NCBI GenBank assembly: GCA_041912555.1
Contig: JAYRMU010000017.1
Coordinates: 2,608-66,607, forward strand
Origin: Thermoanaerobaculia bacterium
Lineage (GTDB): Bacteria > Acidobacteriota > Thermoanaerobaculia > UBA5066 > Gp7-AA6
Direction of reading: 5' to 3'
Length of the DNA stretch: 64,000 bases
In this document: positions 29,746 through 55,905 of the stretch, one piece after another
Numbering within the stretch: position 1 is the first letter of the stretch
Layout of the letters: every line of letters begins with the position of its first letter
Position numbers and translations under genes: made by a program
The notes under the pieces: generated by a model
Told to the model about the DNA's origin: nothing
Database searches by the model: none
The model's input: only the letters and a program-made list of their open reading frames with translations

Positions 29746-32553
29746 CTAGGGGCCGTAGAGCGAAAGCCCGAACGTCTTGTCGAGGAACACGGCCATCTGG
29801 CTTCGCAGGACGGGATTGGCCGGGCAGTAGTTGCCCCCGACGCAGCCGCCCGTGATGCCCTCGTTGTAGAGCTGCTCGATCCAGTCGACCGCGAACGCGG
29901 GCGTCGGGGAACAGGGCACGTCCGGAAAGATCCCGGTGCAGGGGGGAGGAACGTACGCGCTGCCGTGCTCGGTCTTGAGGAGGAAGACCGCCATCTGCGC
30001 GCGGGTCACGGACGAGGCCGGGCAGTAGTTCCCGCCGCCGCAGCCGGTGGTGATTCCCTCGGCCGCGAGCTGCTCGATCCAGTCCACGGCGAAGGCGGCC
30101 GACGGCGTGCAGGGCGCGTCGGGGAAGACGCCGGTGCACGCCGGAGGGATGTAGCTCGCGCCGTGCTCCGCCTTGAGGAGGAAGATCGCCATCTGGGCCC
30201 GGGTGACGGGGTTTCCGGGACAGTAGTTGCCCGCGCCGCAGCCGCCCGTGACCCCGTTGTGGACGAGGTTCTCGACGAAGGGGTAGAACGGGTTCGAGCT
30301 CGGAACGTCCGGGAACGAGTCGCCCACGTGGAGCTTCCAGAGCTTGGCGAGGCCCGTCGAGAGCGTCTCGGTGAAGGTGGCGTCCCAGTGGGCGGCCGGG
30401 CGGGTCCCCGAAACGCTCATCAGGTAGCAGTCGCCCGTCGCGCCGAAGCAGTCCGACGAGCCCCCGGCCGCGATGGAGCCGAAGTCGGCCGTGCCGTCGA
30501 CGAGGGAGTAGGTCGGACCCGCCGGCCCCCCGAGCGACGAGGCCACGCCGGTGAGCGGCTGGGCGGAAACCTGGTTGTTCTTCCAGCTCGTCGAGACCGA
30601 AACGGTCTCGCCGGGCTGGAGGACGCCGTTGTGGTCGGAGGAGTCGCCGGCCATCGCGTGGACGTCGACCGCCATCGGCTGGGCGCCGAGCGCGCCCGTC
30701 GCGCCGGCGCGCTCCAGGGCGGCGTGGGCCATGACGATGCCGGCCCCGGTATCGCGATCCGTGCCGGGGGTCTCGATGTCGATCGCGGAGCCGACGAGCG
30801 CGTCGCGGATCTGGTCGGGGGTGATGGACGGCAGCGCCGACCGGAGCAGGGTCGCGATGGCGGCCGCATGGGGCGCCGCGGCGGACGTGCCGAAGAAGGG
30901 GAGGAACCCGGGAGCCGCGCACGAGACGCCGTCGGCCGCCGTGATGTCGGGCTTCTGGCGCACGATGCCGCCCGTCTTCGTCCGGTTGCCCGGCGTGATC
31001 TCGGAGCCGTCGGTCCTCAGGAGGACCCGCCGCGGCCCGTCGGAGGAGAACGTCTCGCTGACGTTGGCGGGCGAGAAGAGATTCGGGTAGGGGCCGGACG
31101 GCTGGCCGACGCCGTAGCCCGCCGCGGCCGGCGTCGCGGCCACGCTGAACGCGTGCGCCGCCGCGCTGTGGCCGCGGGTCGCGCCGGTCGTGGCGAGGGC
31201 CGGATCGAGCTCGCCGCGGAACGCGATCAGGTTGAACATCGGCGAGCTCGACGTCGTGCCGGCGTGCAGGCGCGTGACCACGAGGCGCTCTCCCGAGAAG
31301 GCCTGTCCCAGCACCTCGACCGGGAAGTCGTCGCCTCCCGCGCCGTTCTGCGCGTCCGTGCTCGAGTCGAAGATCGTCGTCAGGCCGCCGTCCATGTCGT
31401 AGAGGTTGAAGTCCGTCGAGGCGATGCCCGTGCTCAGATCGGCGTGCTCGGCCCAGGTCAGGACGGTGATCGAGTCGGTGTCGGTGACCGCGATCGACTG
31501 GCCGCCGTCGCCGAAGTTGTGGGCCGTGCCGAGGCTCGTGAAGCCGGGAATGGTGCCGTGGGGGTTGAAGTCGCCCTCCCACGTTCCCGACGTCCCGTCG
31601 TCGACGTTCCCCTCGTTGCCGGCCGACGAGAAGTACGAGACGCCGGCCGCCGTGACCGTGTTGACGGCCTGGGCGACGGGGCCGTCCTCGAAGGGGCTCT
31701 CGTCGAGGTAGATGACGTCGTCCACGATGACCTGGCAGCCCGCCGTGGCGAGGTCGAGGATGTTCTGCGCGAACTGGGCCTCCGAGACGACCGCCGTGGC
31801 GTAGTAGAGCTGGGCGTCGGGCGCCATGTCGTGGACGATCTCGAGCATCGCGCAGCCTTCGTTGCCCGATCCGGCCTGGCCGGGCAGGACGTTGACGCTC
31901 GGCAGGTCGCCGCTTCCCTGCAGGGACGCGAGGGAGTCTACGCCGTTCGAGATGACGCCGACCTTGACGCCCGCGCCGGTCGTTCCGAAGAAGGTGCGGG
32001 CCTCGTCGGCGCCGTGGGTGGCAACGCCCTCCGAGACGTTGACGGCGCTGAACTGGGGAGGCACGGCCTGGCGGACCCGGCGGACGCCGGGGATCGCGGC
32101 GATCGCCTCGAGGTCCTCGAAGTGGACGCGGGCGTGGACCTGGAGGTACTTCGGGTGGGCGCTCAGGACGACGCCGCCCCTGGCCTGGATCGCCGCCGAA
32201 ACCGCGGCGATCGTCTCGGCGCCCGCGATCGGGATGTCCACGGCGATCCGCCCGTCGGCGTCCGCGGTGACGAACCGGTAGCTCGTCAGCGGCGCCAGGC
32301 GGGCATCCTGCCTCCGGTGGAGCAGTCCGAGGAACAGGCGCGAATCGATCCGGTGCTGCACCGGCGTCTTCGCCTCGTCGATGCCGGCGAGGGCCTGCAT
32401 CTGGACCGCGGCGCTCGCGGTGATGAGCGGCCCGGGAGGCAGCGGGGCCTCGGCGGCGAAGGAAGCTGTCGCGGAAGCGAAGAGGGCGAGGGCGCCGGCG
32501 AGGACGAGTCGAGGGGCGCGGCGGGGTTCCGGGTCGCGGTGCGGCATTCGCAT
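29746..32553 (-). CDS. Secreted S8 subtilase with three C-terminal Cys-containing SLH-like repeats
   Basis: The Ser motif FGTSAAAPHAAAIA and subtilase Asp/His regions are present. At the C-terminus there are 3 copies of FPD(V/A)P...(V/I)E.L...GITGGCG.GNYCP...VTRAQMA(V/I)FLLK. Confidence 0.8.
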   Translation of the reverse strand: MRMPHRDPEPRRAPRLVLAGALALFASATASFAAEAPLPPGPLITASAAVQMQALAGIDEAKTPVQHRIDSRLFLGLLHRRQDARLAPLTSYRFVTADADGRIAVDIPIAGAETIAAVSAAIQARGGVVLSAHPKYLQVHARVHFEDLEAIAAIPGVRRVRQAVPPQFSAVNVSEGVATHGADEARTFFGTTGAGVKVGVISNGVDSLASLQGSGDLPSVNVLPGQAGSGNEGCAMLEIVHDMAPDAQLYYATAVVSEAQFAQNILDLATAGCQVIVDDVIYLDESPFEDGPVAQAVNTVTAAGVSYFSSAGNEGNVDDGTSGTWEGDFNPHGTIPGFTSLGTAHNFGDGGQSIAVTDTDSITVLTWAEHADLSTGIASTDFNLYDMDGGLTTIFDSSTDAQNGAGGDDFPVEVLGQAFSGERLVVTRLHAGTTSSSPMFNLIAFRGELDPALATTGATRGHSAAAHAFSVAATPAAAGYGVGQPSGPYPNLFSPANVSETFSSDGPRRVLLRTDGSEITPGNRTKTGGIVRQKPDITAADGVSCAAPGFLPFFGTSAAAPHAAAIATLLRSALPSITPDQIRDALVGSAIDIETPGTDRDTGAGIVMAHAALERAGATGALGAQPMAVDVHAMAGDSSDHNGVLQPGETVSVSTSWKNNQVSAQPLTGVASSLGGPAGPTYSLVDGTADFGSIAAGGSSDCFGATGDCYLMSVSGTRPAAHWDATFTETLSTGLAKLWKLHVGDSFPDVPSSNPFYPFVENLVHNGVTGGCGAGNYCPGNPVTRAQMAIFLLKAEHGASYIPPACTGVFPDAPCTPSAAFAVDWIEQLAAEGITTGCGGGNYCPASSVTRAQMAVFLLKTEHGSAYVPPPCTGIFPDVPCSPTPAFAVDWIEQLYNEGITGGCVGGNYCPANPVLRSQMAVFLDKTFGLSLYGP

Positions 32554-38251: not shown

Positions 38252-38330
<79 letters not shown>

Positions 38331-38438
38331 GCCTATCCCGAAGCGACTGCGCGACTTGCTCCGCGTTCCTCCGATTATTAAAACGCACACGTTCGTGTGC
38401 AGCGGACCTGTTCGGGACCTGATAACGGGCTCCCCGAT

Positions 38439-39575
38439 TCATCGGGCCTCCTTCTCCTGCTCGGCCTGCTCGTCCTTGCCGGTCAGGAAGTGGACCGTCG
38501 CCCGGAGTGCCGCGCGGGAGTCCTTCGTCGTGGGGATGTTGTAGCGGTCGAACACCGCCCGCGTCTTGTGGCCCGTGATCCCCATCGCCACGATCGCGGG
38601 GACTCCGGCGCGGGTCATGTTCGTGATCGCGGACCGGCGGAAGTCGTGGAAGTGGAGGCCGGGTTTCCCGGCGGCCGTGCAGGCCCTCGCCCACCGCTTG
38701 CGCCAGTCGCCCAGGGGGCGGCCGTTCTCGTGGAACACGAAAGTCGAGAGCGACGGGCCGTCCGGCGTCTCGAACCGGCGAGCGGCCTCACGGCGCGCGA
38801 TCACCTCCGCGAGCTCCGCCTCGAGCGGCAGCACCCGGCCGCGACCGTTCTTCGAGGTGTAGAGCCACGCCTCGCCGTTCTTCGTGTCGATCCGGTCGAA
38901 GGTGAGGCCCTCGACCTCGCCACGCCGCCAGCCGGAGCGGTAGGCGAACAGGCAGACGTCGGCGTGGACGCTCGGGGCGCCGTTGACCCCCGAGAGCGCC
39001 CGGTACAGCTTCCAGAAGTCCTCCTCCTCCACGAACCCCTGCCGCACGTTGTCCACGTGGGCGAGCTCGAAGTAGGGGACCCGATCGACCGAGATCCGCT
39101 TCTTCTTCGCCGCGAGGATGTAGGCGGAGCGGAGGATCTCGAAGTAGTGATCGACCGTCGAGAGGTCCCGCCGCTTGCCCGAGACGGTGCCGTCCTTCCT
39201 CGGGGCCCGGTCCTCCGCCAGCCACGCCGTCCGCGCGTGTTCGAGGGTGGCGGCCGTGACCTCGACCGCCTTCAACGGCCCGAGGGCGGCCGAGATGATT
39301 TTCCGTTGAGGGTCGAACGTCTCAAGGGACTTCTTCCCGCGCAGGACGAGGCTCTCACGGTAGGCGGTCAGAAGGTCCTCGACGGTGAGCGTGGCCTCCT
39401 CGGCGTAGGCGAACCGGCCCGCGGCGACCTCTTTCCGAAGGGCGCGCCAGGCCTCGAGGGCCTCGGACTTCGTGCGGAACGGTCCCCGCTTGAGACGGGG
39501 GAGGTGCTTGCGGGGGACGAAGCACCACCAGCTGTTCCGATCCTTCGGCTTGAAAACTCCGCCGTCGCCCCTCAT
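38439..39575 (-). CDS. int: Tyrosine-type site-specific integrase (island, adjacent to attL/tRNA)
   Basis: 378 aa with the C-terminal catalytic region HDFRRSAITNMTRAGVP...GH.T...YNI (R-H-R-Y). Confidence 0.85.
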   Translation of the reverse strand: MRGDGGVFKPKDRNSWWCFVPRKHLPRLKRGPFRTKSEALEAWRALRKEVAAGRFAYAEEATLTVEDLLTAYRESLVLRGKKSLETFDPQRKIISAALGPLKAVEVTAATLEHARTAWLAEDRAPRKDGTVSGKRRDLSTVDHYFEILRSAYILAAKKKRISVDRVPYFELAHVDNVRQGFVEEEDFWKLYRALSGVNGAPSVHADVCLFAYRSGWRRGEVEGLTFDRIDTKNGEAWLYTSKNGRGRVLPLEAELAEVIARREAARRFETPDGPSLSTFVFHENGRPLGDWRKRWARACTAAGKPGLHFHDFRRSAITNMTRAGVPAIVAMGITGHKTRAVFDRYNIPTTKDSRAALRATVHFLTGKDEQAEQEKEAR

Positions 39576-39736
39576 CGCCGCCCCCTTCTCGCCTTCCGGG
39601 TGAGGAACCGTTCGAGGGCCTCGATCACGATCGAGCGGAAGTCGGTGTCGTCCTCCGCCGCCCTGATCCGCGCACGGCGGTGGAGGTCCGCGGGCAGGAT
39701 GATCGTCGTTTTCTTCCCGGGTCCCGGTTTCGTCAT
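39572..39736 (-). CDS. Ribbon-helix-helix (CopG/Arc-like) small DNA-binding protein
   Basis: 54-aa MTKPGPGKKTTIILPADLHRRARIRAAEDDTDFRSIVIEALERFL...; ATGA overlap with int. Confidence 0.55.
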   Translation of the reverse strand: MTKPGPGKKTTIILPADLHRRARIRAAEDDTDFRSIVIEALERFLTRKARRGRR

Positions 39737-39762
39737 GGGGCCGTCCTTTCTGCTCTACGGCT

Positions 39763-40167
39763 TTACGGCTGCGCCGTATTGCCTCGGCCCCGACATTTTA
39801 CCGCGTAGGCTTCGAGGTCGCCACGGTCGAACCGGACGACCCCCGGGGAGGGGCGCACCACGGGCAGCTTTCCGGCGGCTGCAAGGCGTGTCACGGTGCT
39901 TTTCGAGACGCGGAGGAGCGCGGCGGCCTCCGAAGCGTCCACGAGGCGCGAACCGGGGGCGCTCGAAGGCTCGGGCGCGGCTGGGGCGGCAGCGGCGGCG
40001 GCCGTCAGGGCGGCGTGGCGGCTCGTCAGGAGCGCCCCGGCGCGGAAGGCGAGCCCGGACAGCTCGAGGGCCTCGGCCGCGGTGAGGTCCCCGGCGGAGG
40101 CCTCGACCTCCGAGAGGAGCGCGACCAGGCGGGGGAGCCGGTCCGGCGGAACAGCGACGGGCCTCAT
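39763..40167 (-). CDS. Excisionase-family HTH DNA-binding protein
   Basis: C-terminal LLRVSKSTVTRLAAAGKLPVVRPSPGVVRFDRGDLEAY matches excisionase/MerR-like HTH. Confidence 0.6.
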   Translation of the reverse strand: MRPVAVPPDRLPRLVALLSEVEASAGDLTAAEALELSGLAFRAGALLTSRHAALTAAAAAAPAAPEPSSAPGSRLVDASEAAALLRVSKSTVTRLAAAGKLPVVRPSPGVVRFDRGDLEAYAVKCRGRGNTAQP

Positions 40168-40526
40168 CGCCTCGGCCGCCTTCCGGTTCCGGCGAGGTCG
40201 GCCGCGAACTCGCGCGCGACCGCCGTCTCATCGTCCGAGGTCCGCACCTCGGGCGGTGCCGGGACGAAGGACGGGTCAGGCTTCTTTTTCTCCCGGTAGA
40301 GCCCCGAGAGCCCGAGCCGTTCGGTTTCATCGAGTACCAGGGGCGGGCGTCCGGCCATGAACTCGGCCACCCGGAGCCGTGCGGCCTCGATCTGCTCGGG
40401 CGTCCGCCGCGCCTTCGGCGTCGGCGCGTCGTCTGCCGGACGAGCGCCGGGACGGGAGCGCCGAACCTTGCGACCGAGGTTCCAGAGCATCGAGCCGGTG
40501 CCGCGGCCGTAGATGGGGCGGCTCAT
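40164..40526 (-). CDS. Hypothetical island protein (120 aa)
   Basis: The internal start MSRPIYGRG... has a good SD (aggaag). Composition is diverse. There are ATGA overlaps on both sides. Confidence 0.45.
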   Translation of the reverse strand: MSRPIYGRGTGSMLWNLGRKVRRSRPGARPADDAPTPKARRTPEQIEAARLRVAEFMAGRPPLVLDETERLGLSGLYREKKKPDPSFVPAPPEVRTSDDETAVAREFAADLAGTGRRPRR

Positions 40527-40771
40527 GTTTCTTCCTCTACCGCCTCGGGCCGCCGGACGCTGTACGTCGCCCGGAGACGTGCAACAGCTTCGGCGTTCGC
40601 CTTGCGCGCGGCCTCCCACCGCTGGCGCGTGGCTTCATCTGGCGGAGTCAGGAGCCGCACGAACGGGCGCCGGGAGGGGCGTGGGGAGGGGTCAGCCGCC
40701 AGAACGCGCGTCCGCCCGCCCGTCGAAGCGGCGTGGGGCGTCTCGTGGCTCCGCGTGGTCGTGTTCTTCAT
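40523..40771 (-). CDS. Hypothetical island protein (82 aa)
   Basis: MKNTTTRSHETPHAASTGG...; 4-nt overlaps with both neighbours. Confidence 0.4.
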   Translation of the reverse strand: MKNTTTRSHETPHAASTGGRTRVLAADPSPRPSRRPFVRLLTPPDEATRQRWEAARKANAEAVARLRATYSVRRPEAVEEET

Positions 40772-42267
40772 CGGGCGGGGCCCTTCTCGATCCGCGACCG
40801 ATTCGCGGGGCGCATGAACCGGCCGCACGCGGGAGGGGGAGCAGAGGCAGGCCCGGGGACCGTAGGACTACCTACCTCGCTATCTGGGAATTTCGCGCAC
40901 GGCCCGCTTGAACTCGACAGGGAATTTCCGGCACGGCCCGCTTGAGGATTCTCGCTTGTGGAAATCGCCGTGTTCGGCTCCGCGAGCGGCGTCTCCGTGT
41001 CCCTTTCCGACAGGGAATTTCCCGCACGGCCCGCTTGAAGATTCTCGACGCCGATCGCCTTGATGAGGCTCCCCACCCGGCGCAGCCCGTGCTTCCCGTA
41101 AGGCACGATTTCCGCCAGCCAAACGACGCGCGGCAGTAGCTCGAGGAGGACGCGCTCGGGCGGCAGGCTGTCCGGTTTCATCCCGAAGGCCTCGAGGACG
41201 AGCCGCACGTCCCGCCGGGCGAAGGACCGGCGCTCCCCGACCTTCCACTTCGGGCAGGGCTCGTGCATCACGCGCTCGCCCCGGAGACAGAAACAGGGGA
41301 GGGCGTAGTAGAGGGGGACCGCTCCGACCTCGCCGTCCACGTCCTCGAAGAAAATCCGAAGCGTGCATTCGCCCCACCCGAGGTGGAGGTGGCGCGGCTC
41401 CCCGACCTCGATAGCGCGAAGGCGGCGGACCTCTCGAGACTCTGCTGCGGCGGAACCCGGACGGGGAAGTCGGGGAAGCCTCGTCGCCCATGCGACGATC
41501 CGCTCGACCTCGTCCGTTGAGAGGTCACGGTCACCCCGCTTGATGCGGGCGCGTTTCTCGAGAAGGTCCGCCCGGATTTCGTGGGCGTCGTAGCCGAGGT
41601 TCCAGAGCGAAGCGGCCCGCTTCGAGAGGTAGTCGTGGCGCTCGCCGGGGGTCAGGGCCTCCGGCTCTCGATCTGCGGCCTGTAGAACCAGCCGCACGGC
41701 GGCGGGATGAGCCGCGAGAACCTCGGCCAGGGTGAACCGCTCACCGCTGCCCGGCCGGAACTCCACGAGGAACGGCTCGCCCTTGTAGTGGAGGAACCCC
41801 GGCAGGCGCATGACGCGCGGCCGATCGTGGACGGTCCCGTCCGAGCCGTAGTGCGCGGCGATCTGCCTCTGCGCGGGACCGAACAACGCGAGCGGTTCAC
41901 CGTGGACGAGGGACCAGTAGGCGTGCGGGCCGCCGCGTGAGAGCGTCTCGAAACTCGGGTCGAGCGCATACTTCTCCGGCGCTCCCTGATCGAAGTCCGC
42001 GAACAGAGCGCGGAGCCCGACGATATTCGCGGCCTTGCGCCCGCGAAGGTCCGTCTCGTTGACGGTGACGAAAATGCCGACGCCCCGGGCGTTGAGGTTC
42101 GCCAGCGTCTCGACGTGCTGTTCGAGCGTCCCGTGAAGGATGCGAGATAGCGTCGAGCGCGTAGAGCCGCCCGGCTTGCGGTCATCGAACGTCTGGAAGG
42201 TCACGCGCGCGGAGGCCGAGCCCGTGAGGGCCTCGAGGAAGGCGCGGGCGGCGGCGGGGTCGATCAC
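40768..42267 (-). CDS. Prim-pol / RepB'-like replication primase; C-terminal ~100 aa overlaps iteron-like repeats
   Basis: N-terminal VTFQTFDD...GSTRS...NARGVGIFVTVNETD...LFADFD matches the bifunctional primase-polymerase fold of P4-alpha/plasmid RepB' type. The GTG start overlaps the upstream stop. Confidence 0.6.
   Translation of the reverse strand: MIDPAAARAFLEALTGSASARVTFQTFDDRKPGGSTRSTLSRILHGTLEQHVETLANLNARGVGIFVTVNETDLRGRKAANIVGLRALFADFDQGAPEKYALDPSFETLSRGGPHAYWSLVHGEPLALFGPAQRQIAAHYGSDGTVHDRPRVMRLPGFLHYKGEPFLVEFRPGSGERFTLAEVLAAHPAAVRLVLQAADREPEALTPGERHDYLSKRAASLWNLGYDAHEIRADLLEKRARIKRGDRDLSTDEVERIVAWATRLPRLPRPGSAAAESREVRRLRAIEVGEPRHLHLGWGECTLRIFFEDVDGEVGAVPLYYALPCFCLRGERVMHEPCPKWKVGERRSFARRDVRLVLEAFGMKPDSLPPERVLLELLPRVVWLAEIVPYGKHGLRRVGSLIKAIGVENLQAGRAGNSLSERDTETPLAEPNTAISTSENPQAGRAGNSLSSSSGPCAKFPDSEVGSPTVPGPASAPPPACGRFMRPANRSRIEKGPAR
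40886..41047. repeat. Three ~34-bp direct repeats gggaatttc[c/g][c/g]gcacggcccgcttga..ttctcg (iteron-like)
   Basis: Copies at ~40886, ~40920 (tandem with the first) and ~41013. They lie within the 3' end of the primase ORF. On translation they give the repeated peptide QAGRAGNSLS twice, and a third copy in another phase. Confidence 0.55.
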
Positions 42268-42704
42268 TCGGGGAACGGCTCCGGGTGGATCAGGGCGATG
42301 AGGCCGGAGCGGTGGACCTCGGGGATATGCGACGGGGCGTGATAAACGAAACCGAGCCGCACGAGCCGATCGCTGCACCGCAGGCAGATCAGCCGCCTGT
42401 CGCCCGCGTACCGCTCCGCCTCATCGGGGCCGTACTCCCACGCCATACCGCGCCGGAGGCAGACCTCGCACCTCGGGCGCTCGGCCCCGGCGCTCCACGA
42501 CTCGTTCCGCCGGACCCACGCGACGACGGCGGCCTTCCAGTTTTTCATCGGCTGGCGACCCATCTGCCACCCGACGCCCTCGTAGTAGGCGACGAAGTAG
42601 TCCGCGTCGATTTCGAGGCCGCGCTCGTCCGCGAAGGCGTGAACCTCCTCCGCCGTGGGCGGGACGAACTCGACGGCGGCCTTCGCCTTCGGCGCGCGAC
42701 TCAT
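42264..42704 (-). CDS. Hypothetical zinc-ribbon protein (CxxC...CxxC)
   Basis: 146 aa with ...CEVCLRRG...CLRCSDR...; 4-nt overlaps with both neighbours. Confidence 0.5.
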   Translation of the reverse strand: MSRAPKAKAAVEFVPPTAEEVHAFADERGLEIDADYFVAYYEGVGWQMGRQPMKNWKAAVVAWVRRNESWSAGAERPRCEVCLRRGMAWEYGPDEAERYAGDRRLICLRCSDRLVRLGFVYHAPSHIPEVHRSGLIALIHPEPFPE

Positions 42705-43003
42705 GTCTCGACCCTGCCTGTCGCCTCCGGGCGCGCGGCGAACTCCGCCAGGGCGCGGGCGAGATTCTCGGCGGCAGTCTCGAGGGCGGCGGCGTAGTCC
42801 TTCACCGCAGAGACGACGCCCTCGTCGTAGGACCCTTCGTCGTAGAGCGGATCATCGAACCATTCGACATCGAGCCGGGCCCGGATGCCGCGTTCGCGCG
42901 CCCCGAGGATGTACCGCTGAACCCGGAGCGCCCGCTGTTCGGCCTCAAGCCTCTGCCGCCTCGCCCGCTCCTTGGCTTTTGTCTTTTTCCGTGCCGCGTT
43001 CAT
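42701..43003 (-). CDS. Hypothetical basic coiled-coil protein (100 aa)
   Basis: MNAARKKTKAKERARRQRLEAEQRALRVQRYILG...; the upstream part of the 224-aa ORF is Arg/Gly artefact. Confidence 0.45.
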   Translation of the reverse strand: MNAARKKTKAKERARRQRLEAEQRALRVQRYILGARERGIRARLDVEWFDDPLYDEGSYDEGVVSAVKDYAAALETAAENLARALAEFAARPEATGRVET

Positions 43004-43710
43004 TGCGTCACCTCGTCCGCTTTCCCGAGCCTCTCGAGCGTCCGAGGGTCCACGGCCTCCGGGGGCCAGGCGCGGCCAGAGGCGTAGTCGGCGTGGGCGT
43101 CCGGTTCGCCAGCATCGACGCTCGCCACCCAGAAGAACCGATAGCGCGCGCCGAACCTCGAGAGCTCCGGCCGGGCCGCGTGCCCCACGACCCTGTTGCC
43201 CTTGAACCCGTCCGCGATGAACGATCCGAGGGCCCGCCGCCCATCCGGGTCGCCCTCGGGCGTCGTGACTCCGACGAATCCTTCCCGAACGTAGGGCCGC
43301 CGCGACACGTCCTCGAGCCACGTGACCGGCCCGCGCACCGGCTCCGCCTCGTGATCCGCCCCGTGAATCGGACACGGAGGCCGCAGGCCGCGGCGATCGA
43401 GGTGCGCGAGGATCAGACCGAATTTCTGCTCGGCCTCCTCGCCTACGATCGCGCCCGAGAGCATCTCGACCGCGTCAGCGAGGAGCGCGTTCGGGTCGTG
43501 CTGCTCCTTCTCGATGAGGCCGCCGCCCTCCGCGAACACGCGCGCGGCCTCGCGGAACGCGGCGGGCAGGCTCGGCGGGTACTCGCCCAGGCCTACGCCG
43601 TTCTCGGCGGCCACGTAATAGAGGAAACGCATGAAGTCCTCGGCGTCGGCGTGTGCGAGGACCTCGAGCGCGGCGGCGTCTGCCGCCTTCAGCTTCTTCT
43701 TCCTACTCAT
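43000..43710 (-). CDS. Hypothetical island protein (236 aa)
   Basis: MSRKKKLKAADAAALEVLAHADAEDFMRFLYYVAAENG...; no recognisable domain. Confidence 0.5.
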   Translation of the reverse strand: MSRKKKLKAADAAALEVLAHADAEDFMRFLYYVAAENGVGLGEYPPSLPAAFREAARVFAEGGGLIEKEQHDPNALLADAVEMLSGAIVGEEAEQKFGLILAHLDRRGLRPPCPIHGADHEAEPVRGPVTWLEDVSRRPYVREGFVGVTTPEGDPDGRRALGSFIADGFKGNRVVGHAARPELSRFGARYRFFWVASVDAGEPDAHADYASGRAWPPEAVDPRTLERLGKADEVTQ

Positions 43711-43991
43711 CGGCCTGCTCCTTTCGTCGGCCTCACGGCCGGGGGAACCGGGACGGGTGCGGGGTGGACGCGGTGGAGGAACACGGCGCCCGAGGGTGCG
43801 AAGGCCGGGAGCTCGGGCAGAGGCCGGACAAGGGCGAGGCGGGCGCACCGAAGCCAGCACTCCGAGCAGAGCAGCCGCCCGGCGTCCTCGCCCAGACTCG
43901 GGGCGTAGAGCTCGCCCCTGATTCCGCAGAGGCCGCACGTCGGCGGGTCCTCGGGCCTCCACGGCGCGGGGCTGTAGGCGGTCGCGCTCAA
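43707..43991 (-). CDS. Possible small CxxC...CxxC protein (94 aa, TTG start)
   Basis: ...CGLCGIRGELY...CSECWLRC...; the TTGA overlap with the upstream gene fits the operon's 4-nt overlap pattern. Confidence 0.3.
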   Translation of the reverse strand: MSATAYSPAPWRPEDPPTCGLCGIRGELYAPSLGEDAGRLLCSECWLRCARLALVRPLPELPAFAPSGAVFLHRVHPAPVPVPPAVRPTKGAGR

Positions 43992-44359
43992 TGCTCGCCC
44001 CGGAGGAAGGGGAGAACGAAGGGGAGGACGCGGAGCGGCCTCCCGACGTGGACCACCTTCTCGGGGACCACGGCGATCGGGATACCGCCCCCGGTGGCGC
44101 GCGCAGTCGCCTTCGCGGCATCGAGCGCGGCCCGGATCGGATCGGCGCACCCGTCGCAGAGGTTCTCGACCGGCTCGTCCGGGCCGTCGATCCGCGGGTT
44201 GCCGAGGGTGACGAACCCGTCGCCCTCCTCGAACTTGTAGCCGCACCCGCCGCAGTAGCCGCGCTCGTAGAGAAACCGGCGATGCTCCTCGGTGAACTGT
44301 CCGGCCGCGCGAACCTCCGCGAGGGCCTTCATCACGCACGTCCACGTCCGCGGCTTCAA
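43988..44359 (-). CDS. Hypothetical Cys-rich protein (123 aa)
   Basis: MKPRTWTCVMKALAEV...YCGGCGYKFEEGD...CDGCADP. Confidence 0.45.
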   Translation of the reverse strand: MKPRTWTCVMKALAEVRAAGQFTEEHRRFLYERGYCGGCGYKFEEGDGFVTLGNPRIDGPDEPVENLCDGCADPIRAALDAAKATARATGGGIPIAVVPEKVVHVGRPLRVLPFVLPFLRGEH

Positions 44360-44685
44360 TGGCCACCCCCTTCCGCCACCGGCCAGAGCGTCCGCTCGCG
44401 GACGACGCCGCCCCCGTCGAGGAAGAACTCACCGAGACGGCGGCCGGGATCTTCTTCACGCTCGAGACGGTCGAGGGCGTCCGAGCCCGCCCGCCAGAGC
44501 TCGGCCGCCCGCTCCTTCCCGGCGCACGCCTTCATGCCGTGGACGATCACGACGCGGCACCCGCGGAGAAGGGCGAAGGCGACGAGCGCGCGGTACTTCG
44601 TCGGCTCGATCTCCGCTTCGGCCATCGGGGTGACGATCACGACCGGGGCAGCCGCCTTGACAGGCGATGCGATACTTGAGGGCAT
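44356..44685 (-). CDS. Hypothetical island protein (109 aa)
   Basis: MPSSIASPVKAAAPVVIVTPMAEAEIEPTKYRALVAFALLRGCRVVIVHGMKACAGKE... Confidence 0.45.
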   Translation of the reverse strand: MPSSIASPVKAAAPVVIVTPMAEAEIEPTKYRALVAFALLRGCRVVIVHGMKACAGKERAAELWRAGSDALDRLEREEDPGRRLGEFFLDGGGVVRERTLWPVAEGGGH

Positions 44686-44740
44686 CGAGTCCTCCTTCCC
44701 AGGGTGAGGGCGCCGTTGCTCGCGGCGTCCTTTCGTTTTT

Positions 44741-44905
44741 TCAGCCGACCTTTCTCGTTCTGATCCGCTGGACGATCCGCGCCTCGGCCCGGCGGAGGTA
44801 CTCCCGTTCGGCCCGGAACCACCGGCGCGTCTCCTCGGGCTCGCCCGCTGCCGGGTACGCGGGCCGCTGGCGGAACTCGAGGAGACGGCCGTTCTCGCGG
44901 CTCAT
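44741..44905 (-). CDS. Possible small protein (54 aa)
   Basis: MSRENGRLLEFRQRPAYPAAGEPEETRRWFRAEREYLRRAEARIVQRIRTRKVG; weak RBS. Confidence 0.2.
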   Translation of the reverse strand: MSRENGRLLEFRQRPAYPAAGEPEETRRWFRAEREYLRRAEARIVQRIRTRKVG

Positions 44906-45135
44906 CGGACGTTGACCCCGACCGTCTTGCCGAGGGCGATGCTCCGCTCGGCCGCCGTGGTGTAGTCCCCACGGCGCGCGGCCTCCCTGATCGCCTCGAG
45001 GGAAAAACCGAGCGCGGCCGGACTCATCTTCGAGCCCACCTGCGCGGTGAACCGCCGGGCGAGCTCGGCCGCCACGCGCTCGTTCTGATCGCGCCGAACC
45101 GCGTCGAAGGGATCGGACAGCCGGTGCGTGGTCAT
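44902..45135 (-). CDS. Hypothetical small protein (77 aa)
   Basis: Internal start MTTHRLSDPFDAVRRDQNERVAAELARRF...; ATGA overlap with the upstream gene. Confidence 0.35.
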   Translation of the reverse strand: MTTHRLSDPFDAVRRDQNERVAAELARRFTAQVGSKMSPAALGFSLEAIREAARRGDYTTAAERSIALGKTVGVNVR

Positions 45136-45887
45136 GCGGAGGCCACGACCTCGACGCCGCTCGAGGCGGCGACCTTCGCCTCCGGCCGGGGCAGCGTGTG
45201 CATCGGCCGGGAGGGCGCGGCCTCGGGGGCGGGGCGCTTGAGGAGCTCGACCACGGCGCGGAGGGCGTCGAGACTGCGGCCGGACTTCGCGGCCCATGCG
45301 TCACGCTCGGCCGCCTTCGTCGCCGCGAACTCCTCGGCCCCGCTCTCGGCGTGGAGGCCGGTGGCGAGGACCGCCTGCTTCTCCTCGAGACGCCGCTGCA
45401 GGTCCGCGATCTCGCTCCGCGTGGCCTCGTTCTTTTCGCGGACGCTGGCGAGGAACTGATCGGCACCGAGCGCCGGGTTCTCCGCCTCGGTGAGGAACCG
45501 GAGCGCCATCGAGTCCGAGACGGCGACCGCCTCCTCGGCCGAGGTCAGCGGCCGCCAGTAGGGCGTAGTCTTTCCCTCGAACACGTTGTCGAGGACGATC
45601 GGCAGGTCCCCGGGCATCTCCTCGTGGACCGTCTCGCCGGGCCAGATCAGCGAGGACTTCGGGATCTCCGGTCCCTCGGAGTGCTTCGTGCGCGTGTTCG
45701 GGTAGGCGCGGACCGCGCCACCCACGGCGAGCAGGAGCCGCGAGCGGACGACGCGCCCCGCCTTCTCGTTCTCCTGGTCCTTCTCGATCACCTTCGCCTC
45801 GGCCAGAACGCTGGCGAGGAGCTCGCGCGAAGGCGTGGCGGGTTTCGTCTCGGACGGTGCGGACTGTTTCGGGTTCTGGGAAGCCAT
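45132..45887 (-). CDS. Hypothetical island protein (251 aa), acidic/coiled-coil
   Basis: Composition is diverse and not GC-artefact-like (MASQNPKQSAPSETKPATPSRELLASVLAEAKVIEKDQENEK...). Confidence 0.55.
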   Translation of the reverse strand: MASQNPKQSAPSETKPATPSRELLASVLAEAKVIEKDQENEKAGRVVRSRLLLAVGGAVRAYPNTRTKHSEGPEIPKSSLIWPGETVHEEMPGDLPIVLDNVFEGKTTPYWRPLTSAEEAVAVSDSMALRFLTEAENPALGADQFLASVREKNEATRSEIADLQRRLEEKQAVLATGLHAESGAEEFAATKAAERDAWAAKSGRSLDALRAVVELLKRPAPEAAPSRPMHTLPRPEAKVAASSGVEVVASA

Positions 45888-45915
45888 CGAGTCCTCCTTC
45901 GGAAGTTGCCGCGCT

Positions 45916-46326
45916 CTACGAGGTCGGCGTGCGAGTGGGCGCAGCCGTGATCGTCTGCGTCGGCCTGATGAAAGGCGTCTGGGAGGGCGTAAAAGTCGGG
46001 GTCGGCGTCCACGGCGTGGTGGTGTTCGTCGGCGTGCGCGTGGCCGTCTGCGTGGGCGTGTTCGTGATCGTGGGGACCTTCGTCGCGGTGGCCGGGATCG
46101 GCGTGTAGGTCCTCGTGTTGTACGGCGTCGGCGTGTTCGTCTTGACGCCGGACGGGTGGCCGGGGAACACGTCCGAATACCCGAAGGCAGGGGTCTGGGT
46201 GGGGGTATTCGTGGCCGTGGGCGTGTTCGTCCGCGTGTTCGTGGGCGTGTTCGTCTGTCCCGAGGCGAGCGAAGCGACGAGGATGAGCGGGACCACGAGG
46301 AGCGCGATGCGGGGTAGGTTCTTCAC
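45916..46326 (-). CDS. Secreted Thr/Pro-rich low-complexity protein (TNTPT repeats)
   Basis: Signal peptide MKNLPRIALLVVPLILVASLASG, then ~110 aa dominated by T, P and N. This is unusual in a 70% GC genome and argues for real coding. Confidence 0.55.
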   Translation of the reverse strand: MKNLPRIALLVVPLILVASLASGQTNTPTNTRTNTPTATNTPTQTPAFGYSDVFPGHPSGVKTNTPTPYNTRTYTPIPATATKVPTITNTPTQTATRTPTNTTTPWTPTPTFTPSQTPFIRPTQTITAAPTRTPTS

Positions 46327-46345
46327 GGGACTTCTCCTTGCGGCT

Positions 46346-46756
46346 CTACTTCGCCGCGATCACTCGCGGCAGGATCGCCGCTTCGATTTCGGAATTCGGA
46401 TTGATGCGCGGGGCCACGCACGGCCACGCCTTCACGATCTGCTCGCGGATCACCGGGGCCGCCACGCTCTCGGGCGGGGCGGCACGAAGGCCCTCGAGAG
46501 CCACCGCGAGGACGTCGGAAAACTCGAGAGGCGGCGGGCAGGCGCGCTCGTCCGCGAACGTGAGTGACGCGGTGGCCTCGATGAACGCGCGGCAGCTCGA
46601 GGCGTCTCCGCCAGAGCAGGCACGAAGCACGGCCCCCGATAGCGCCGGATCGTCTGCGCCCACCTCGGGCGTCGTGACAGGGCGGGCGGAGGTGGACGCG
46701 CACGCCGTCGCCGCGAGTAGGGCGGCGGCACCGAGGCCCCGAGCGAGGCGCGCCAC
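46346..46756 (-). CDS. Putative small lipoprotein/secreted Cys-containing protein (136 aa)
   Basis: The start is a tentative GTG. Signal-like AAALLAATAC is followed by six Cys. Confidence 0.4.
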   Translation of the reverse strand: MARLARGLGAAALLAATACASTSARPVTTPEVGADDPALSGAVLRACSGGDASSCRAFIEATASLTFADERACPPPLEFSDVLAVALEGLRAAPPESVAAPVIREQIVKAWPCVAPRINPNSEIEAAILPRVIAAK

Positions 46757-46974
46757 GGGGGCCGCAATTCCCCCGGGCGCGGCACCCCGGTGCCGCCGCT
46801 TTTCGTTCGGAAGGGAGACGAGGCCGGACTCGTGCGCGGTGTGTGGCGCCCCCGTCAGGGCCACGGGAAGTGCGCTCGGGTGGATCAGCACCCGAGAGGC
46901 TTTCCGCCCGTTATGCCCGGTGCCGCTGACGGGGAAACGATCCGCGGGGAGTCCGGCCCCGCCTTGAAACCTGA

Positions 46975-47184
46975 TCATCGCGCGGCCGCCTTCGCCTGGT
47001 CGGCCCGCCGCTGGCGGACGCGGTCGATGGCCGCGTAGAACGCGACAACGTCCGCGGGAGCGGGGAGGGCCGCGCGCTCGAACCGAGAGAGCCGCGATTG
47101 AGTCCACCCGAGCTCGCGGGCGCACGCCGCCTGATTGAGCCCCAGACTCCTCCGCGCCACCTCTGCCACGCTGATCGGCCGCAT
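46975..47184 (-). CDS. XRE-family (Cro/cI-type) HTH transcriptional regulator
   Basis: 69 aa with LGLNQAACARELGWTQSRLSRFER as HTH_XRE. Confidence 0.7.
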   Translation of the reverse strand: MRPISVAEVARRSLGLNQAACARELGWTQSRLSRFERAALPAPADVVAFYAAIDRVRQRRADQAKAAAR

Positions 47185-47243
47185 CTCTCGTTTCTCCTGC
47201 CCCCGCTTCCGAGGGTCACGAGGATGGTGGCGTGGCTTATGCG

Positions 47244-47283
47244 CGAGACGGGGAAAAGGAAATTAACCCTCCCGGGCGGAGGG
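47244..47283 (-). terminator. Putative intrinsic terminator after the 317-aa gene
   Basis: 7-bp stem accctcc/ggagggt with loop cgggc, followed on the minus strand by a U-rich ttaatttcctttt. Confidence 0.3.
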
Positions 47284-47291
47284 TGCGGTGG

Positions 47292-48245
47292 CTACCGGGC
47301 AGCGGCCTTCCGCGTGCGTGCGTCGAGGCCGGACCGCAGAGACTTCGCGGCCTCCGCTGCCGCCTTCTCGTTCCCGTACAGGTCCGGCTGACGCTCCGCG
47401 GCCACGACGAGGCGCGCGATGCTTTCCCAGTCCTCGCGGTCGATGAACCGCGTGAACCGCTCGAGCAGGCGCTCGCCCGGGTTCGGTGTGACGGCTCGGA
47501 GAAGGAGCCGCCGGAGAAAGCGGGAGAACTCGGGCTCCCGTCCCCGTTCGCGGTCGAGGCATTCGAGGCGTAGAGCGTGGGCGAGCTCGGCCACGCGGTC
47601 GGTGGGATTGCCGAGCCCGGGCCGTTCTGCCTTCCCGAGTGCCTCGCGCTCCTTCTTCGGTAGCCGCTTTCGGGCCTCGATAGCAGCACGACGAAGGGCC
47701 TTCGTGAAGGCTCCGCCTGGCACGTGGGGGAGGTCCCAGTCGAGCTCGTGGAACAGGAGGGCTCGAGCGAGTACCGAGGGTTCGTCGCCTTTCTCACCGC
47801 GGGCCGCCATCGCGGCACGGCGGGCGGAGCTCGCGGCGAACGCGGCCGGAGCCTTCGGGTCCGGGCGTCCGCCCTCGAACCTCCGCGCGCGAAACAGCCG
47901 GACCTCGGACCGGGCGGCCTCTCTGATGCCGGGCCACGGCTGCGCCTCGCCCTTCACCGGCTCGCCCGCCTCCGCGATCCATGCCCTTGCGGACTCCACG
48001 ATCGCGTCAGGAACGCGCGTCGGCTCGCGCCACACGGGCAGCGGCCAGCCTGGAATCTCGGGCAGCACGAGGTCGTCCGGCTCCTTCCCGCGCGGTGGAA
48101 CCCTCGGGAACCCGCGAGGCATCGAGGCCAGGAAGTCCCGCCACCGGAGGCCCAGGACCTCTGGCACGATCGCGGCGAACGTGTCGTCAGGGAGCGCGAG
48201 CGCTCCTTCCCGGGATGCGATGAGCCAGAGAGCCCGATCGCTCAC
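47292..48245 (-). CDS. Hypothetical island protein (~317 aa)
   Basis: Tentative GTG start (VSDRALWLIASREG...). The C-terminal 250 aa have diverse, protein-like composition. No domain recognised. Confidence 0.5.
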   Translation of the reverse strand: MSDRALWLIASREGALALPDDTFAAIVPEVLGLRWRDFLASMPRGFPRVPPRGKEPDDLVLPEIPGWPLPVWREPTRVPDAIVESARAWIAEAGEPVKGEAQPWPGIREAARSEVRLFRARRFEGGRPDPKAPAAFAASSARRAAMAARGEKGDEPSVLARALLFHELDWDLPHVPGGAFTKALRRAAIEARKRLPKKEREALGKAERPGLGNPTDRVAELAHALRLECLDRERGREPEFSRFLRRLLLRAVTPNPGERLLERFTRFIDREDWESIARLVVAAERQPDLYGNEKAAAEAAKSLRSGLDARTRKAAAR

Positions 48246-48249
48246 GCGG

Positions 48250-48408
48250 TCAGCCCTTGCGGGCCTTCTTCTTCGCGGGCCACCGCTTCGCGCGGGCCGC
48301 CGCCAGAGCGCGCATCTTCGCTGGGGACTTCGACGCACCCCCACGGGCGCCGACACACGCGGGGCAGACCACGAGTGGCTGGACGTTCGGGTGCTTCTGG
48401 CACTTCAT
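48250..48408 (-). CDS. Possible 52-aa zinc-ribbon, Lys-rich protein
   Basis: MKCQKHPNVQPLVVCPACVGARGG...KRWPAKKKARKG; it sits just upstream of the 317-aa gene. Confidence 0.3.
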   Translation of the reverse strand: MKCQKHPNVQPLVVCPACVGARGGASKSPAKMRALAAARAKRWPAKKKARKG

Positions 48409-48531
48409 GGGACGAGATTCTATCATGAGCCGGGTTCTGAGATCAGGCCCGTCCCGCCGAGCGAAGGGGGCGGTCTAGCGCCCGAGGGCGGCCCAGACGT
48501 ACAATTCGTGTCGAAACCGAGGAGAAAAATT

Positions 48532-49270
48532 ATGAATCGCGCATCCTGTCGGCACTTGCTCGGGATGGTCTCCGTGTTCTTGTTCGTTGCAGGTTCAGCT
48601 TCGGCCGCGAACCCCGCTCCGAAAACCTACGGAACTCAGAACGTCACGTGGTATCGAGTCTCCGCGGCCGAATTCGCACCCGCGAACGGCACGGTTCCGA
48701 GTACCTCGTGGAATCCGTCCTCAAGCTATGCCTTCCGAACGTGGGGAACGGGTGGCTGGTTCTTCGCTGCTCCGCACCTGCCCGCGGGTGCCCTTCTGAC
48801 AGGCCTTGAGCTGGACGCGTGCGACACGAACGGCAGCGGGAACCATCTGGATCTTCAGCTTTATGACTGCGACCGCTTCTCGAACTGCAACGCGGTGCCG
48901 CTGACCTCGGTCTCGACGTTCGACCTCGGGCCGGGTTGCGGAAGCGTGAGTATCGACGTCACCGGCGCGAACTACACCGTGGACAATCAGGCTCACCAGC
49001 TGCTCCTCTGGGCGAACATGGCGGCCACCGACGGCACGAACCAGATCGCAGGGGCAGCCATCGGGTACGTGCTACAGGTGAGTCCCGCGCCCGGGTCGCC
49101 CACCTTCAACGACGGTCCCCACGAACGATATCGGCTTTCAATACATCGAAGCCCTCGCCGCCTCTGGCATCACGGGCGGATGCGGCGGAGGCAACTACTG
49201 CCCGGACAACCCAGTCACGCGTCGGCAGATGGCGATCTTCCTTGCGAAGGCGCTCGGATTGTCGTTCTGA
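48532..49270 (+). pseudogene. Secreted protein with C-terminal Cys-containing SLH-like domain, interrupted by a +1 frameshift near 49114
   Basis: Strong SD (aggag) and signal peptide MNRASCRHLLGMVSVFLFVAGSASA. Frame A runs to ...TFND, then the SLH-like domain DIGFQYIEALAASGITGGCGGGNYCPDNPVTRRQMAIFLAKALGLSF continues in the next frame after a TGA-blocked stretch. Joining the two frames gives TFNDVPTNDIGFQYIEAL, which matches the protease repeat SFPDVPSSNPFYPFVENL. Confidence 0.6.
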
Positions 49271-49357
49271 CGGATCAGGCCTTCTGACGGCAAGGACTCG
49301 AGCCGGGCGGGAAAACCCGGCTCGAGGTCTTTCTGGCCGCGTAAAATCCGCGGCACC

Positions 49358-49528
49358 GTGACCGACGCTGAGGAACTCCGCCGCCTGCTCCGAGAGGTAG
49401 CCCGACGAGCCGAGGCCGAGGGCGTCACCCCGCGCGACTACCTCGACCGCGAGCTCGGCCGACTCGATCGTCTCCGCCGCGCCCGGATCGAGGCGTGGAA
49501 AGCGGAGCGGAGGCGGCCGCCGTCGTAG
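49358..49528 (+). CDS. Possible small 56-aa protein (antitoxin/RHH-like?)
   Basis: GTG ORF VTDAEELRRLLREVARRAEAEGVTPRDYLDRELGRLDRLRRARIEAWKAERRRPPS. Confidence 0.2.
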   Translation: MTDAEELRRLLREVARRAEAEGVTPRDYLDRELGRLDRLRRARIEAWKAERRRPPS

Positions 49529-49723
49529 GGGCGCCCGCCCCCTGGGTTCATGACGGGAGCCGGACGGCGTAGATCCGCTCGCCCCCGAGGTCCAGAACCT
49601 CCACGCGCTCGCGTGGGTTCCGGTTCTTCGAGGGTGGCCGCGCGTCCCTCAAGTCCCCGCGCACCTCGCCGTTCGCAGCACGGACCGCCGACACCTTGCG
49701 CGGCTGGCGGTAGGCGAGCGGGT

Positions 49724-53231: not shown

Positions 53232-53446
53232 GGGCGCGCCTTCCCGACGCGGCCCTCCGCCCGGAGACGCTCCACGACCGCCTTCATCCGCCTGCTCTGC
53301 GCCTCGCGTTGTGCCGGGTCCTTCCAGCGTGCGTTCGCGGCCCGCCTCGCCAGCTTGCGAGCCCGAGCCGTCGAGAGACTGGCCGCACGTGCGTGGCCGC
53401 CACGCCTTCCCGCTTCCCGCGCGAGGTCCTCACCGTTCAGGAACAT
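53228..53446 (-). CDS. Small basic protein (72 aa)
   Basis: MFLNGEDLAREAGRRGGHARAASLSTARARKLARRAANARWKD... with a good SD (ggagg); ATGA overlap with terS. Confidence 0.4.
   Translation of the reverse strand: MFLNGEDLAREAGRRGGHARAASLSTARARKLARRAANARWKDPAQREAQSRRMKAVVERLRAEGRVGKARP

Positions 53447-55858: not shown

Positions 55859-55905
<47 letters not shown>

Follow-up and report, generated by a model that had tools for sequence, protein, structure and literature searches.

What kind of module is a repeat that carries two conserved cysteines in a short loop, stands three times in tandem at the C-terminus of a secreted protease-like protein and recurs once more in a gene on an integrative element? 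The question is raised by a stretch of 64,000 nucleotides (the window; G+C content 71%) of a Thermoanaerobaculia bacterium of the phylum Acidobacteriota (assembly GCA_041912555.1, contig JAYRMU010000017.1, positions 2,608 to 66,607, forward strand), in which both the gene for the S8-like protein and the integrative element lie. An earlier note on this DNA had described the repeat as similar to S-layer homology (SLH) domains and had suggested a disulfide-stabilised or metal-binding module that anchors proteins at the cell surface. The present analysis identified the repeat as a true SLH domain (Pfam PF00395/PROSITE PS51272) in a lineage-specific form, i.e., as a variant of a known module and not as a new kind of domain.

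A search of all six reading frames for the motif G..C....[FYW]CP returned exactly four units in the window, three in the C-terminal part of the minus-strand open reading frame (ORF) at 29746-32553 and a fourth on the plus strand (motif at 49175-49204), all of them where the earlier note had placed them. The region it had assigned to the triple repeat, 29746-30300, omitted the first five residues (FPDVP) of unit 1, and its consensus VTR.Q needed amendment at unit 3, which reads VLRSQ. Pairwise identity among the three protease units and the island unit was 50-59%, with 22 invariant columns in their alignment, and all four shared the motif G-[IV]-T-x-G; the repeat is real and far beyond chance. 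Within the 197-residue module formed by the three protease units the period was 66 residues, as marked by C34, C100 and C166, and unit 3 was followed by the tail TFGLSLYGP and a stop codon at 29746-29748 (for coordinates and scores of the units see Table 1).

The assignment to the SLH family was supported by profile as well as by predicted fold. The comparison with Pfam SLH that had been proposed as a check gave 62.4 bits for the whole protein (E=3.9e-17; gathering score 20.8). When the units were scanned singly, three of the four exceeded the cut-off, and unit 3 alone remained under it with 16.5 bits. The sequence profile of the module matched Sap of Bacillus anthracis at E=4e-12 and also matched SbsB and OmpM-type SLH entries (8BYM, 8BYS, 8BZ2). 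An AlphaFold2 (AF2) model was computed from an alignment of the module with its 120 best relatives (121 sequences), which also served for all conservation counts. The model was of high confidence (mean predicted local distance difference test score, pLDDT, 95.3; predicted template modelling score 0.90) and consisted of six helices, which form three helix-loop-helix units in the pseudo-threefold, three-pronged spindle arrangement typical of SLH trimers. In a Foldseek search of the PDB the best 15 matches were all SLH trimers, with probability 1.00 and template modelling (TM) scores of 0.64-0.85 (3PYW, 6CWC, 6BT4), and the next match had E=0.18. The top match was 3PYW, Sap of B. anthracis (E=6e-9, TM 0.76/0.84), and others included 6BT4, Sap with a pyruvylated ligand, and Paenibacillus alvei SpaA entries of the 6CW and 7SV series. 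A scan of the protease and the island protein against NCBIfam yielded just partial, far-below-threshold matches from the S8 and SLH parts (mycosin; a NEAT/LRR protein). The repeat belongs to the SLH family because profile, fold, triple arrangement and the residues Gly29 and Arg43 all agree, and the resemblance noted earlier thus turned out to be more than an SLH-like one.

We consider it likely that the protease carries a genuine triple SLH anchor of a lineage-specific, disulfide-stapled subfamily that serves as an address tag, a reading in which we infer the ligand, the envelope site, the disulfides and the trimerisation of single-unit relatives. The three helix-loop-helix units would pack into the spindle, and the spindle would hold the Sec-exported protein non-covalently on a cell-wall-linked glycan, which most likely would be anionic through ketal-pyruvylation. 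A disulfide between SLH-30 and SLH-36 (G-G-C-G-x-G-N-Y-C-P) would close the loop after the ligand-binding Gly29, and a second one would form in each inter-unit linker (C-T-G-x-F-x-D-x-P-C). Such staples would arise after export and would stiffen the module, leaving its job unchanged. The island gene would be a captured member of a small family that combines a jelly roll with a single SLH unit and needs trimerisation, disabled here by a frameshift.

The residues on which SLH function depends are SLH-Trp13, Gly29 of the GIIxG motif and Arg43 of TRAE; the pyruvate carboxylate is held by Arg43 and the backbone amide of Gly29, which flips its backbone upon ligand binding, and Trp13 stacks on the ring of N-acetylmannosamine (Blackler et al., PMC6081394). 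With the G-[IV]-T-x-G motif of the window set on GIIxG, the loop reads G29-C30-G-x-G-N-Y-C36-P37...T42-R43-A44-Q45. The equivalents of Arg43 (R47, R113, R179) were invariant among the 121 sequences, as were two of the three Gly29 equivalents (G99 and G165), the third, G33, being conserved in at least 90%. Aromatic residues occurred near the position of Trp13, namely a Phe at SLH-14 in unit 1 and, a helical turn later, a Trp at SLH-17 in units 2 and 3, both of them near-invariant. Absence of Trp13 is not disqualifying, as SlhA units that have Tyr in its place continue to be regarded as functional (PMC6081394).

The ORFs of the window and of related loci (designated L) were searched for pyruvyltransferases by phmmer with Escherichia coli WcaK as seed. 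Four syntenic loci from metagenome-assembled genomes (MAGs) of four species (L017, L059, L061, L078) encoded a protein of about 1,280 amino acids (aa) with a CsaB-type pyruvyltransferase domain, followed by a family-2 glycosyltransferase (GT2) and then a TuaH-like group-1 glycosyltransferase (GT1) domain. Two of these proteins, those of L017 and L078, were scanned against family libraries, and their N-terminal domains scored 211.1 and 213.4 bits with TIGR03609 'S_layer_CsaB' (cut-off 213.1; PF04230 E=4e-42). In all four loci the fusion gene was located 3-5 kb downstream of two genes with a triple cysteine-type SLH module, on the same strand.

Several points weigh against the proposed explanation. 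SLH-Trp13 was not found in any of the units, and as this residue is not conserved the ligand may differ; the motifs also end in Q (TRAQ, TRAQ, LRSQ), the canonical form being TRAE. TRAQ is a known variant and occurs in unit 3 of SpaA. The phmmer search with the WcaK seed detected no csaB in the 64-kb window. In the related loci a two-component system stands between the CsaB-fusion and SLH genes; the intervening genes were mapped in L017, where a response-regulator gene and another stretch intervene, which suggests linkage and not one operon. The loop and linker disulfides are inferred from sequence, and the poor fold of a lone unit in a monomer model, described below, fits trimerisation without proving it. 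The Acidobacteriota are placed in the Gracilicutes and have a diderm envelope, and in such a host either the periplasm or the cell surface may be the site of these proteins. Both SLH and CsaB were reported to be practically absent from Gracilicutes (Witwinowski et al., 10.1101/2021.05.31.446380); given this reported near-absence, a CsaB-type gene beside cysteine-type SLH genes was unexpected.

The unconserved Trp13, the terminal Gln of all motifs and a diderm host phylum in which SLH and CsaB are reported to be unusual would also fit an SLH fold that binds another ligand. Candidates would be peptidoglycan, either plain or polyamine-modified as for the OmpM proteins that diderm Firmicutes possess, and a glycan of the outer membrane or capsule, and OmpM-type SLH domains indeed match the profile as well. 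This alternative appears rather unlikely to us, as the pyruvate-contacting Arg43 and Gly29 are invariant or nearly so in the three units and as four related genomes encode, next to cysteine-type SLH genes, a protein that scores at the CsaB equivalog threshold.

What, then, is the role of the cysteines? The loop pair lies outside the canonical SLH motif, as had been claimed, in that it occupies the sites of Y/N and R/E in GY.DGTF.P. Its placement at SLH-30 and SLH-36 was consistent with an alignment to Sap by HMMER (GitgGCgggnYCp over GAVKGNDKGMFEP). Cys100 was present in 120 of the 121 sequences, and the other loop cysteines (34, 40, 106, 166 and 172) were invariant or conserved in at least 90%. 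The earlier note had recognised this pair and missed a second one, which occurs once per inter-unit linker (C68/C77 and C134/C143; pattern PPxC-TG-x-F-x-D-x-P-C). For C68/C77 both cysteines were present in 102 sequences, neither in 18 and a single one in 1; for C134/C143 the corresponding numbers were 111, 9 and 1.

To count loop pairs on a larger scale, a hidden Markov model (HMM) of the unit was run over every ORF in 1.44 Mb of related DNA from 81 sources, and a regular expression for the loop was applied to the related loci and 268 proteins. Among the 539 units found by the HMM, 491 had both cysteines, 38 (of which about 30 were complete units) had neither, and 10 seemed to have a single one. 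These ten were truncated matches, a shifted C-x3-C variant or a damaged ORF, and no complete unit had a genuine single cysteine. Likewise, the regular expression found two cysteines in 912 loops, none in 49 and one in 2, both of the latter being spurious (artefact or damaged ORF). By the unit HMM, the regular expression and the linker counts alike, cysteines were gained or lost in pairs only, as expected of a disulfide-stabilised extracytoplasmic domain. The first loop cysteine directly followed Gly29 in all loops but one, and the two cysteines were most often separated by 5 residues (773 loops), followed by 7 (102), 6 (23), 8 (7) and 4 (4), and by 3, 9 or 10 residues once each.

Units without the pair had V/I at SLH-30 together with G at SLH-36, or the canonical Y together with G. 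They occurred in at least three unrelated settings (Table 1), and some SLH triples are mosaics of canonical and cysteine-type units. The joint gain and loss, the tolerated loop lengths and the replacement by one large and one small residue point to a disulfide that closes the loop, unlike a metal site, and the loop pair probably forms such an intradomain bond. We found no description of a disulfide-bearing SLH domain in the literature; a paper on the endolysin LysBT1, which concerns both SLH and cysteine, reports no disulfides, and the cysteine matter in it concerns the catalytic domain.

The earlier suggestion of a disulfide or a metal site could thereby be narrowed to the former, which is better supported by the zero-or-two rule, the varying spacing and the paired replacement, and metal binding remained without support. 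Short C-x-n-C motifs can bind metals, and units 2 and 3 each have four conserved cysteines close in sequence, which could form a four-cysteine site for Zn or Cu, for example, from the loop and linker pairs. Unit 1 and the single-unit family have two cysteines only, and the linker pair is lost jointly in 8-15% of the sequences, with the loop pair retained, which indicates that the pairs are independent and argues against a four-cysteine site. In addition, a precise metal site would not tolerate a loop spacing of 3 to 10 residues, the V/I plus G or Y plus G replacements conserve volume and not chelation, and the proteins are exported. With a spacing that varies, two pairs that behave independently and replacements of this kind, a metal site was rejected, and we regard it as highly improbable.

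Intermolecular disulfides, which would join the SLH proteins covalently in a lattice at the surface or would release them in a redox-dependent manner, might be expected from the many paralogues per genome, often tandem arrays of proteins of about 300 aa with an unknown domain and a triple SLH module. However, a single short loop holds strictly zero or two cysteines, their spacing varies and they are replaced as a pair, all of which indicates that the partners reside in the same loop, where the confident monomer model also has both cysteines. We consider a lattice or such a redox switch highly improbable.

The module was found to be widespread and to be joined to many different proteins. A word-indexed protein search gave 7,625 matches among 8,000 scored candidates; the best 120 relatives were 54-80% identical across the whole module and differed in their upstream domains, and the best relatives are named 'S-layer homology domain-containing protein' by NCBI and originate from Thermoanaerobaculia and Longimicrobiales. 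An exhaustive search of 1.84 billion cluster representatives yielded 49,193 matches at E<=1e-3, 14,919 at E<=1e-10 and 3,220 at E<=1e-30, the last being clusters at 50% identity. The module formed the extreme C-terminus in 123 of 148 relatives, and its conserved terminal peptide is F-G-L-x-L-Y-G-P. An SLH match was obtained for 67 of the 69 representatives scanned, which carried partner domains as different as TIG (16), FG-GAP, Vgb_lyase, P_proprotein, beta-helix, fn3, PD40, BACON_2, reprolysin, Calx-beta and S8.

When one genome was scanned for each species, at least 576 loci were detected, and the best 80 of these belonged nearly all to Thermoanaerobaculia/Acidobacteriota MAGs, apart from two of Chloroflexota and one from a MAG with the label Syntrophothermus. 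Single MAGs had at least 9-17 ORFs with SLH, counted as stop-to-stop frames and not as called genes, within 60-120 kb each, often in tandem arrays. As part of the explanation given above, and with the same degree of confidence, the module would be an interchangeable C-terminal address tag on much of the Thermoanaerobaculia-type secretome. We found no paper that links SLH with Acidobacteriota or Thermoanaerobaculia. The idea that the module is mainly a secretion or sorting signal, like the C-terminal domains of the type IX secretion system or PEP-CTERM, and not a wall anchor would suit both its place at the very end of widely differing cargo proteins and its conserved terminal peptide, but is the least probable of all, as the module has 197 residues, far above known sorting tags, retains the full SLH trimer fold with intact ligand residues and is N-terminal or internal in 25 of the 148 relatives.

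Among characterised systems the module most resembles the SLH domains of Sap and EA1 of B. anthracis and of SpaA of P. alvei (3PYW, 6BT4, 6CWC), with which it shares an arrangement of three units in tandem, each about 55-65 residues long, the predicted fold (TM up to 0.84), a GxxxG loop with Gly29, an Arg43 at the start of the core helix and the character of an autonomous anchor joined to unrelated passenger domains. It differs from them by the SLH-30/36 cysteine pair and the extra linker pairs, by an unconserved Trp13, by its C-terminal instead of N-terminal position and by its host phylum (Acidobacteriota versus Firmicutes), and identity is 16-24%. OmpM of Veillonella and SlpA of Deinococcus/Thermus (8BYM), which tether the outer membrane in diderm Terrabacteria, have one SLH unit per chain, need trimerisation and belong to diderm envelopes, which is the likely mode of the island-protein family as well. 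In OmpM and SlpA an N-terminal SLH unit is followed by a coiled coil and a beta-barrel, whereas the island family has a jelly roll of about 160 aa, then a C-terminal SLH unit and no barrel. Xylanases, pullulanases and proteases of Gram-positive thermophiles with a C-terminal triple SLH module likewise retain a secreted hydrolase at the cell, and such SLH-anchored extracellular enzymes were reportedly treated by Cann and co-workers in 1999. Compared with these, the present module belongs to another lineage, carries cysteine staples and is used on a far larger scale, in thousands of distinct proteins.

The label of an S8 protease, which the earlier note had given to the host gene, needs care. 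The Ser motif GTSAAAP and the oxyanion Asn motif SAGNEG are canonical and align with solved subtilases and with the canonical S8 protease of L080, and this holds for those two motifs only. The expected catalytic Asp and His sites (window 31800-32000, residues ~195-245) read VGVISNG / GNEGCAM when aligned by eye and by weak BLAST segments, and those of the orthologue P0154, which is 78% identical, read VGVLSDG / DEGSAM by the same approach. Judged by these motifs, it may be a relative of S8 peptidases that is atypical or lacks activity. Its gene also occurs in a JGI contig of 99% identity.

The SLH triple is immediately preceded by a conserved domain of about 125 aa, which had no Pfam match at E<=0.1. 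By tblastn, most related loci had this domain in the same place, immediately ahead of the triple, and the genes frequently formed tandem arrays. The same domain followed by a triple SLH module makes up many proteins of about 300 aa in tandem arrays (7 copies in L027; also L033, L064 and L068).

The fourth unit lies within a tRNA-targeting integrative element, as shown by its integrase, the tRNA-derived repeats at its ends and an empty site in a close relative. The JGI contig Ga0131092_10000940 (L088) was 99.0% identical to window 22739-38330 and 98.2% identical to 55859-62397. The two alignments overlapped by 46 nt and exactly 38331-55858 was absent, so that the contig shows the unoccupied attB site, whose core measures 46 nt. 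We conclude that the island was inserted recently and that the protease gene belongs to the chromosome in both cases. The G+C content at third codon positions was lower in island genes than in the flanking host genes. Besides the integrases and a primase-like gene, the island genes had no PHROGs or Pfam match and no recognisable phage structural genes were present; on account of the missing matches the element was not classed as a phage or as another integrative type.

The fourth SLH unit was found at the site where it had been described as the end of a secreted island protein, but it is out of frame with the N-terminal part of the gene by one extra G. Translation from the ATG at 48532 gives ...SPTFND, continues with GPHERYRLS... 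as far as 49287 and contains no SLH; this product is also the deposited gene call (P0121, the frameshifted 251-aa ORF 48532-49287), whereas an intact homologue, 63% identical, has a single G at the insertion site. Run SRR26835170 has been assembled independently in the Logan collection (L085), and that assembly, which matched over 6,756 bp without a difference, also had the frameshift. The extra G at 49114-49115 is either a pseudogene mutation or a read-level error; with the frameshift, the island copy would not be made as an anchored protein in this genome.

The family of the island protein comprises proteins of 224-291 aa, most of them 245-252, with a signal peptide and a beta-sandwich of about 160 aa, and most end in one C-terminal SLH unit. 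In an AF2 model of the island protein residues 75-183 reached pLDDT 83-93, and the lone SLH unit reached 40-53 in the monomer. In Foldseek the beta-sandwich matched generic jelly rolls (CBM6/35/36, TNF-like and capsid proteins; E ~1e-4, TM 0.3-0.6). Judging from the model, members with a single SLH unit would trimerise into one spindle. Family members occurred in chromosomal tandem arrays (L084, L036) and also beside a Prim-Pol/AAA_25 region (L082, L083). The island was not assigned to the element family of that region, as only the SLH gene is common to both. That a mobile element shares a domain with its host had been considered notable; the module, however, ends thousands of proteins in the lineage and the family of the island protein is common in chromosomal tandem arrays, and with such a lineage-wide anchor its presence on an island gene is to be expected.

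Some further features of the island and its surroundings were recorded. A GCGTG-rich repeat at 45908-46266 has an 18-nt period and 8 overlapping copies of a 53-nt reference; it overlaps a candidate ORF (46109-46567) and would encode a hexapeptide repeat rich in G, V and F. At the 3' end of the primase-like gene (40881-41047) a 40-nt repeat (CGACAGGGAATTTCC.GCACGGCCCGCTTGA...) occurs three times, with 95% identity between two of the copies, which may be iterons or an origin of the element. A gene of the YgbA_NO family (55847-56377, plus strand; Pfam E=5.7e-43) directly adjoins attR, and the attR repeat falls in the 5' portion of the gene's stop-to-stop frame and precedes the region matched by Pfam. 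Elsewhere in the window, ARAGORN predicted a tRNA-SeC (anticodon TCA) at 6790-6857 on the minus strand, which suggests selenoprotein synthesis in this organism.

Table 1. Features of the S8-like gene, its SLH units and the integrative element, together with selected genes of related loci (positions are those of the window unless a locus, L, is named).
Feature	Position	Strand	Remarks
Secreted S8-like protein gene, ends in triple SLH	29746..32553	-	935 aa (933 aa in JGI gene call); Pfam Peptidase_S8 E=4.3e-13
Putative Sec signal peptide	32455..32553	-	MRMPHRDPEPRRAPRLVLAGALALFASATASFA followed by AE; by eye from translation
Peptidase_S8 match	30739..31830	-	Pfam, profile positions 76-288 only
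Conserved ~125-aa domain, directly before SLH triple	30319..30696	-	...HWDATF..W.LHVG.SF
SLH unit 1	30172-30315	-	FPDVP...GVTGGCGAGNYCPGNPVTRAQMAIFLLK; Pfam SLH 37.5 bits; unit HMM 95.6 bits
Unit 1 loop Cys codons	30238-30240 and 30220-30222	-	
SLH unit 2	29974-30126	-	FPDAPC...GITTGCGGGNYCPASSVTRAQMAVFLLK; Pfam SLH 24.4 bits; unit HMM 92.5 bits
Unit 2 loop Cys codons	30040-30042 and 30022-30024	-	linker pair 30136-30138 and 30109-30111
SLH unit 3	29776-29928	-	FPDVPC...GITGGCVGGNYCPANPVLRSQMAVFLDK; unit HMM 89.7 bits
Unit 3 loop Cys codons	29842-29844 and 29824-29826	-	linker pair 29938-29940 and 29911-29913
Fourth (island) SLH unit	49105-49270	+	FND followed by VPTNDIGFQYIEALAASGITGGCGGGNYCPDNPVTRRQMAIFLAKALGLSF and stop, read after removing one G; Pfam SLH 37.7 bits; unit HMM 80.1 bits
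Island gene, in-frame part	48532..49113	+	signal peptide (by eye) and beta-sandwich (jelly-roll) domain
One-base insertion	49114..49115	+	GG versus G in intact homologue; shifts frame just before SLH unit
Integrative element carrying fourth unit	38331..55858		17,528 bp
tRNA-Pro (CGG), integration target	38254..38330	+	ARAGORN
attL repeat	38285-38339		direct repeat D3
attR	55859..55913	+	55-nt copy, 93% identical, of tRNA-Pro 3' half; direct repeat D3
Tyrosine integrase adjoining attL	38439..39575	-	Pfam Phage_integrase E=5.5e-19; PHROG 1 E=2e-39
Second tyrosine recombinase adjoining attR	54420..55727	-	Pfam Phage_integrase and SAM-like N-terminal domain
Primase-like gene	40768..42378	-	PHROG 10514 DNA primase E=1.4e-12; RepB_primase match weak
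CsaB-fusion genes	L017:15278-19144; L078:14376-18167; also L059, L061		
Pair-less unit 1 of beta-helix/TIG proteins	L058 (3103-5550), L063, L072		V/I..G
Pair-less unit 2 of canonical S8 protease	L080:10625-13270		triple of Cys-type, canonical GYPDGTFGP and Cys-type (C-x8-C) units
Pair-less unit of island-protein family member	L006:2850-3683		canonical GYPDGRFG loop

For Firmicutes and diderm Terrabacteria, SLH domains are the textbook example of anchoring to the wall without a covalent bond. As automatic annotation already labels these proteins as SLH, the domain call itself is not new and the finding is a refinement that leaves the SLH concept unchanged. What appears to be undescribed is the stapled variant and the fact that, alongside a CsaB-type enzyme, it has expanded in a class of the Gracilicutes, and the main surprise is the expansion of an SLH/CsaB system in a phylum of this group, where cysteine-stapled SLH is used on a very large scale in a class with almost no cultured members.

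A further-reaching and tentative idea, which we hold to be possible but doubtful, is that the Thermoanaerobaculia acquired SLH/CsaB anchoring and made it their main way of retaining secreted proteins, and that the staple beside Gly29 pre-sets or changes the binding mechanism or the ligand, beyond adding stability. As the backbone flip of Gly29 gates ligand binding in SpaA, an adjacent staple would have this effect. If true, there would be tens of cysteine-type SLH proteins per genome and thousands of distinct ones in public data, and an unusual glycan-decorated envelope layer would exist in a poorly cultured class.

If the explanation as a stapled SLH anchor holds, it would show which proteins of abundant soil and sediment bacteria stay at the envelope, among them proteases, beta-helix and TIG-domain proteins and many of unknown function, and it would predict a pyruvylated wall glycan in a Gracilicutes lineage. 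It would also provide a naturally disulfide-stabilised SLH scaffold for tests of the Gly29 backbone flip or for surface-display engineering.

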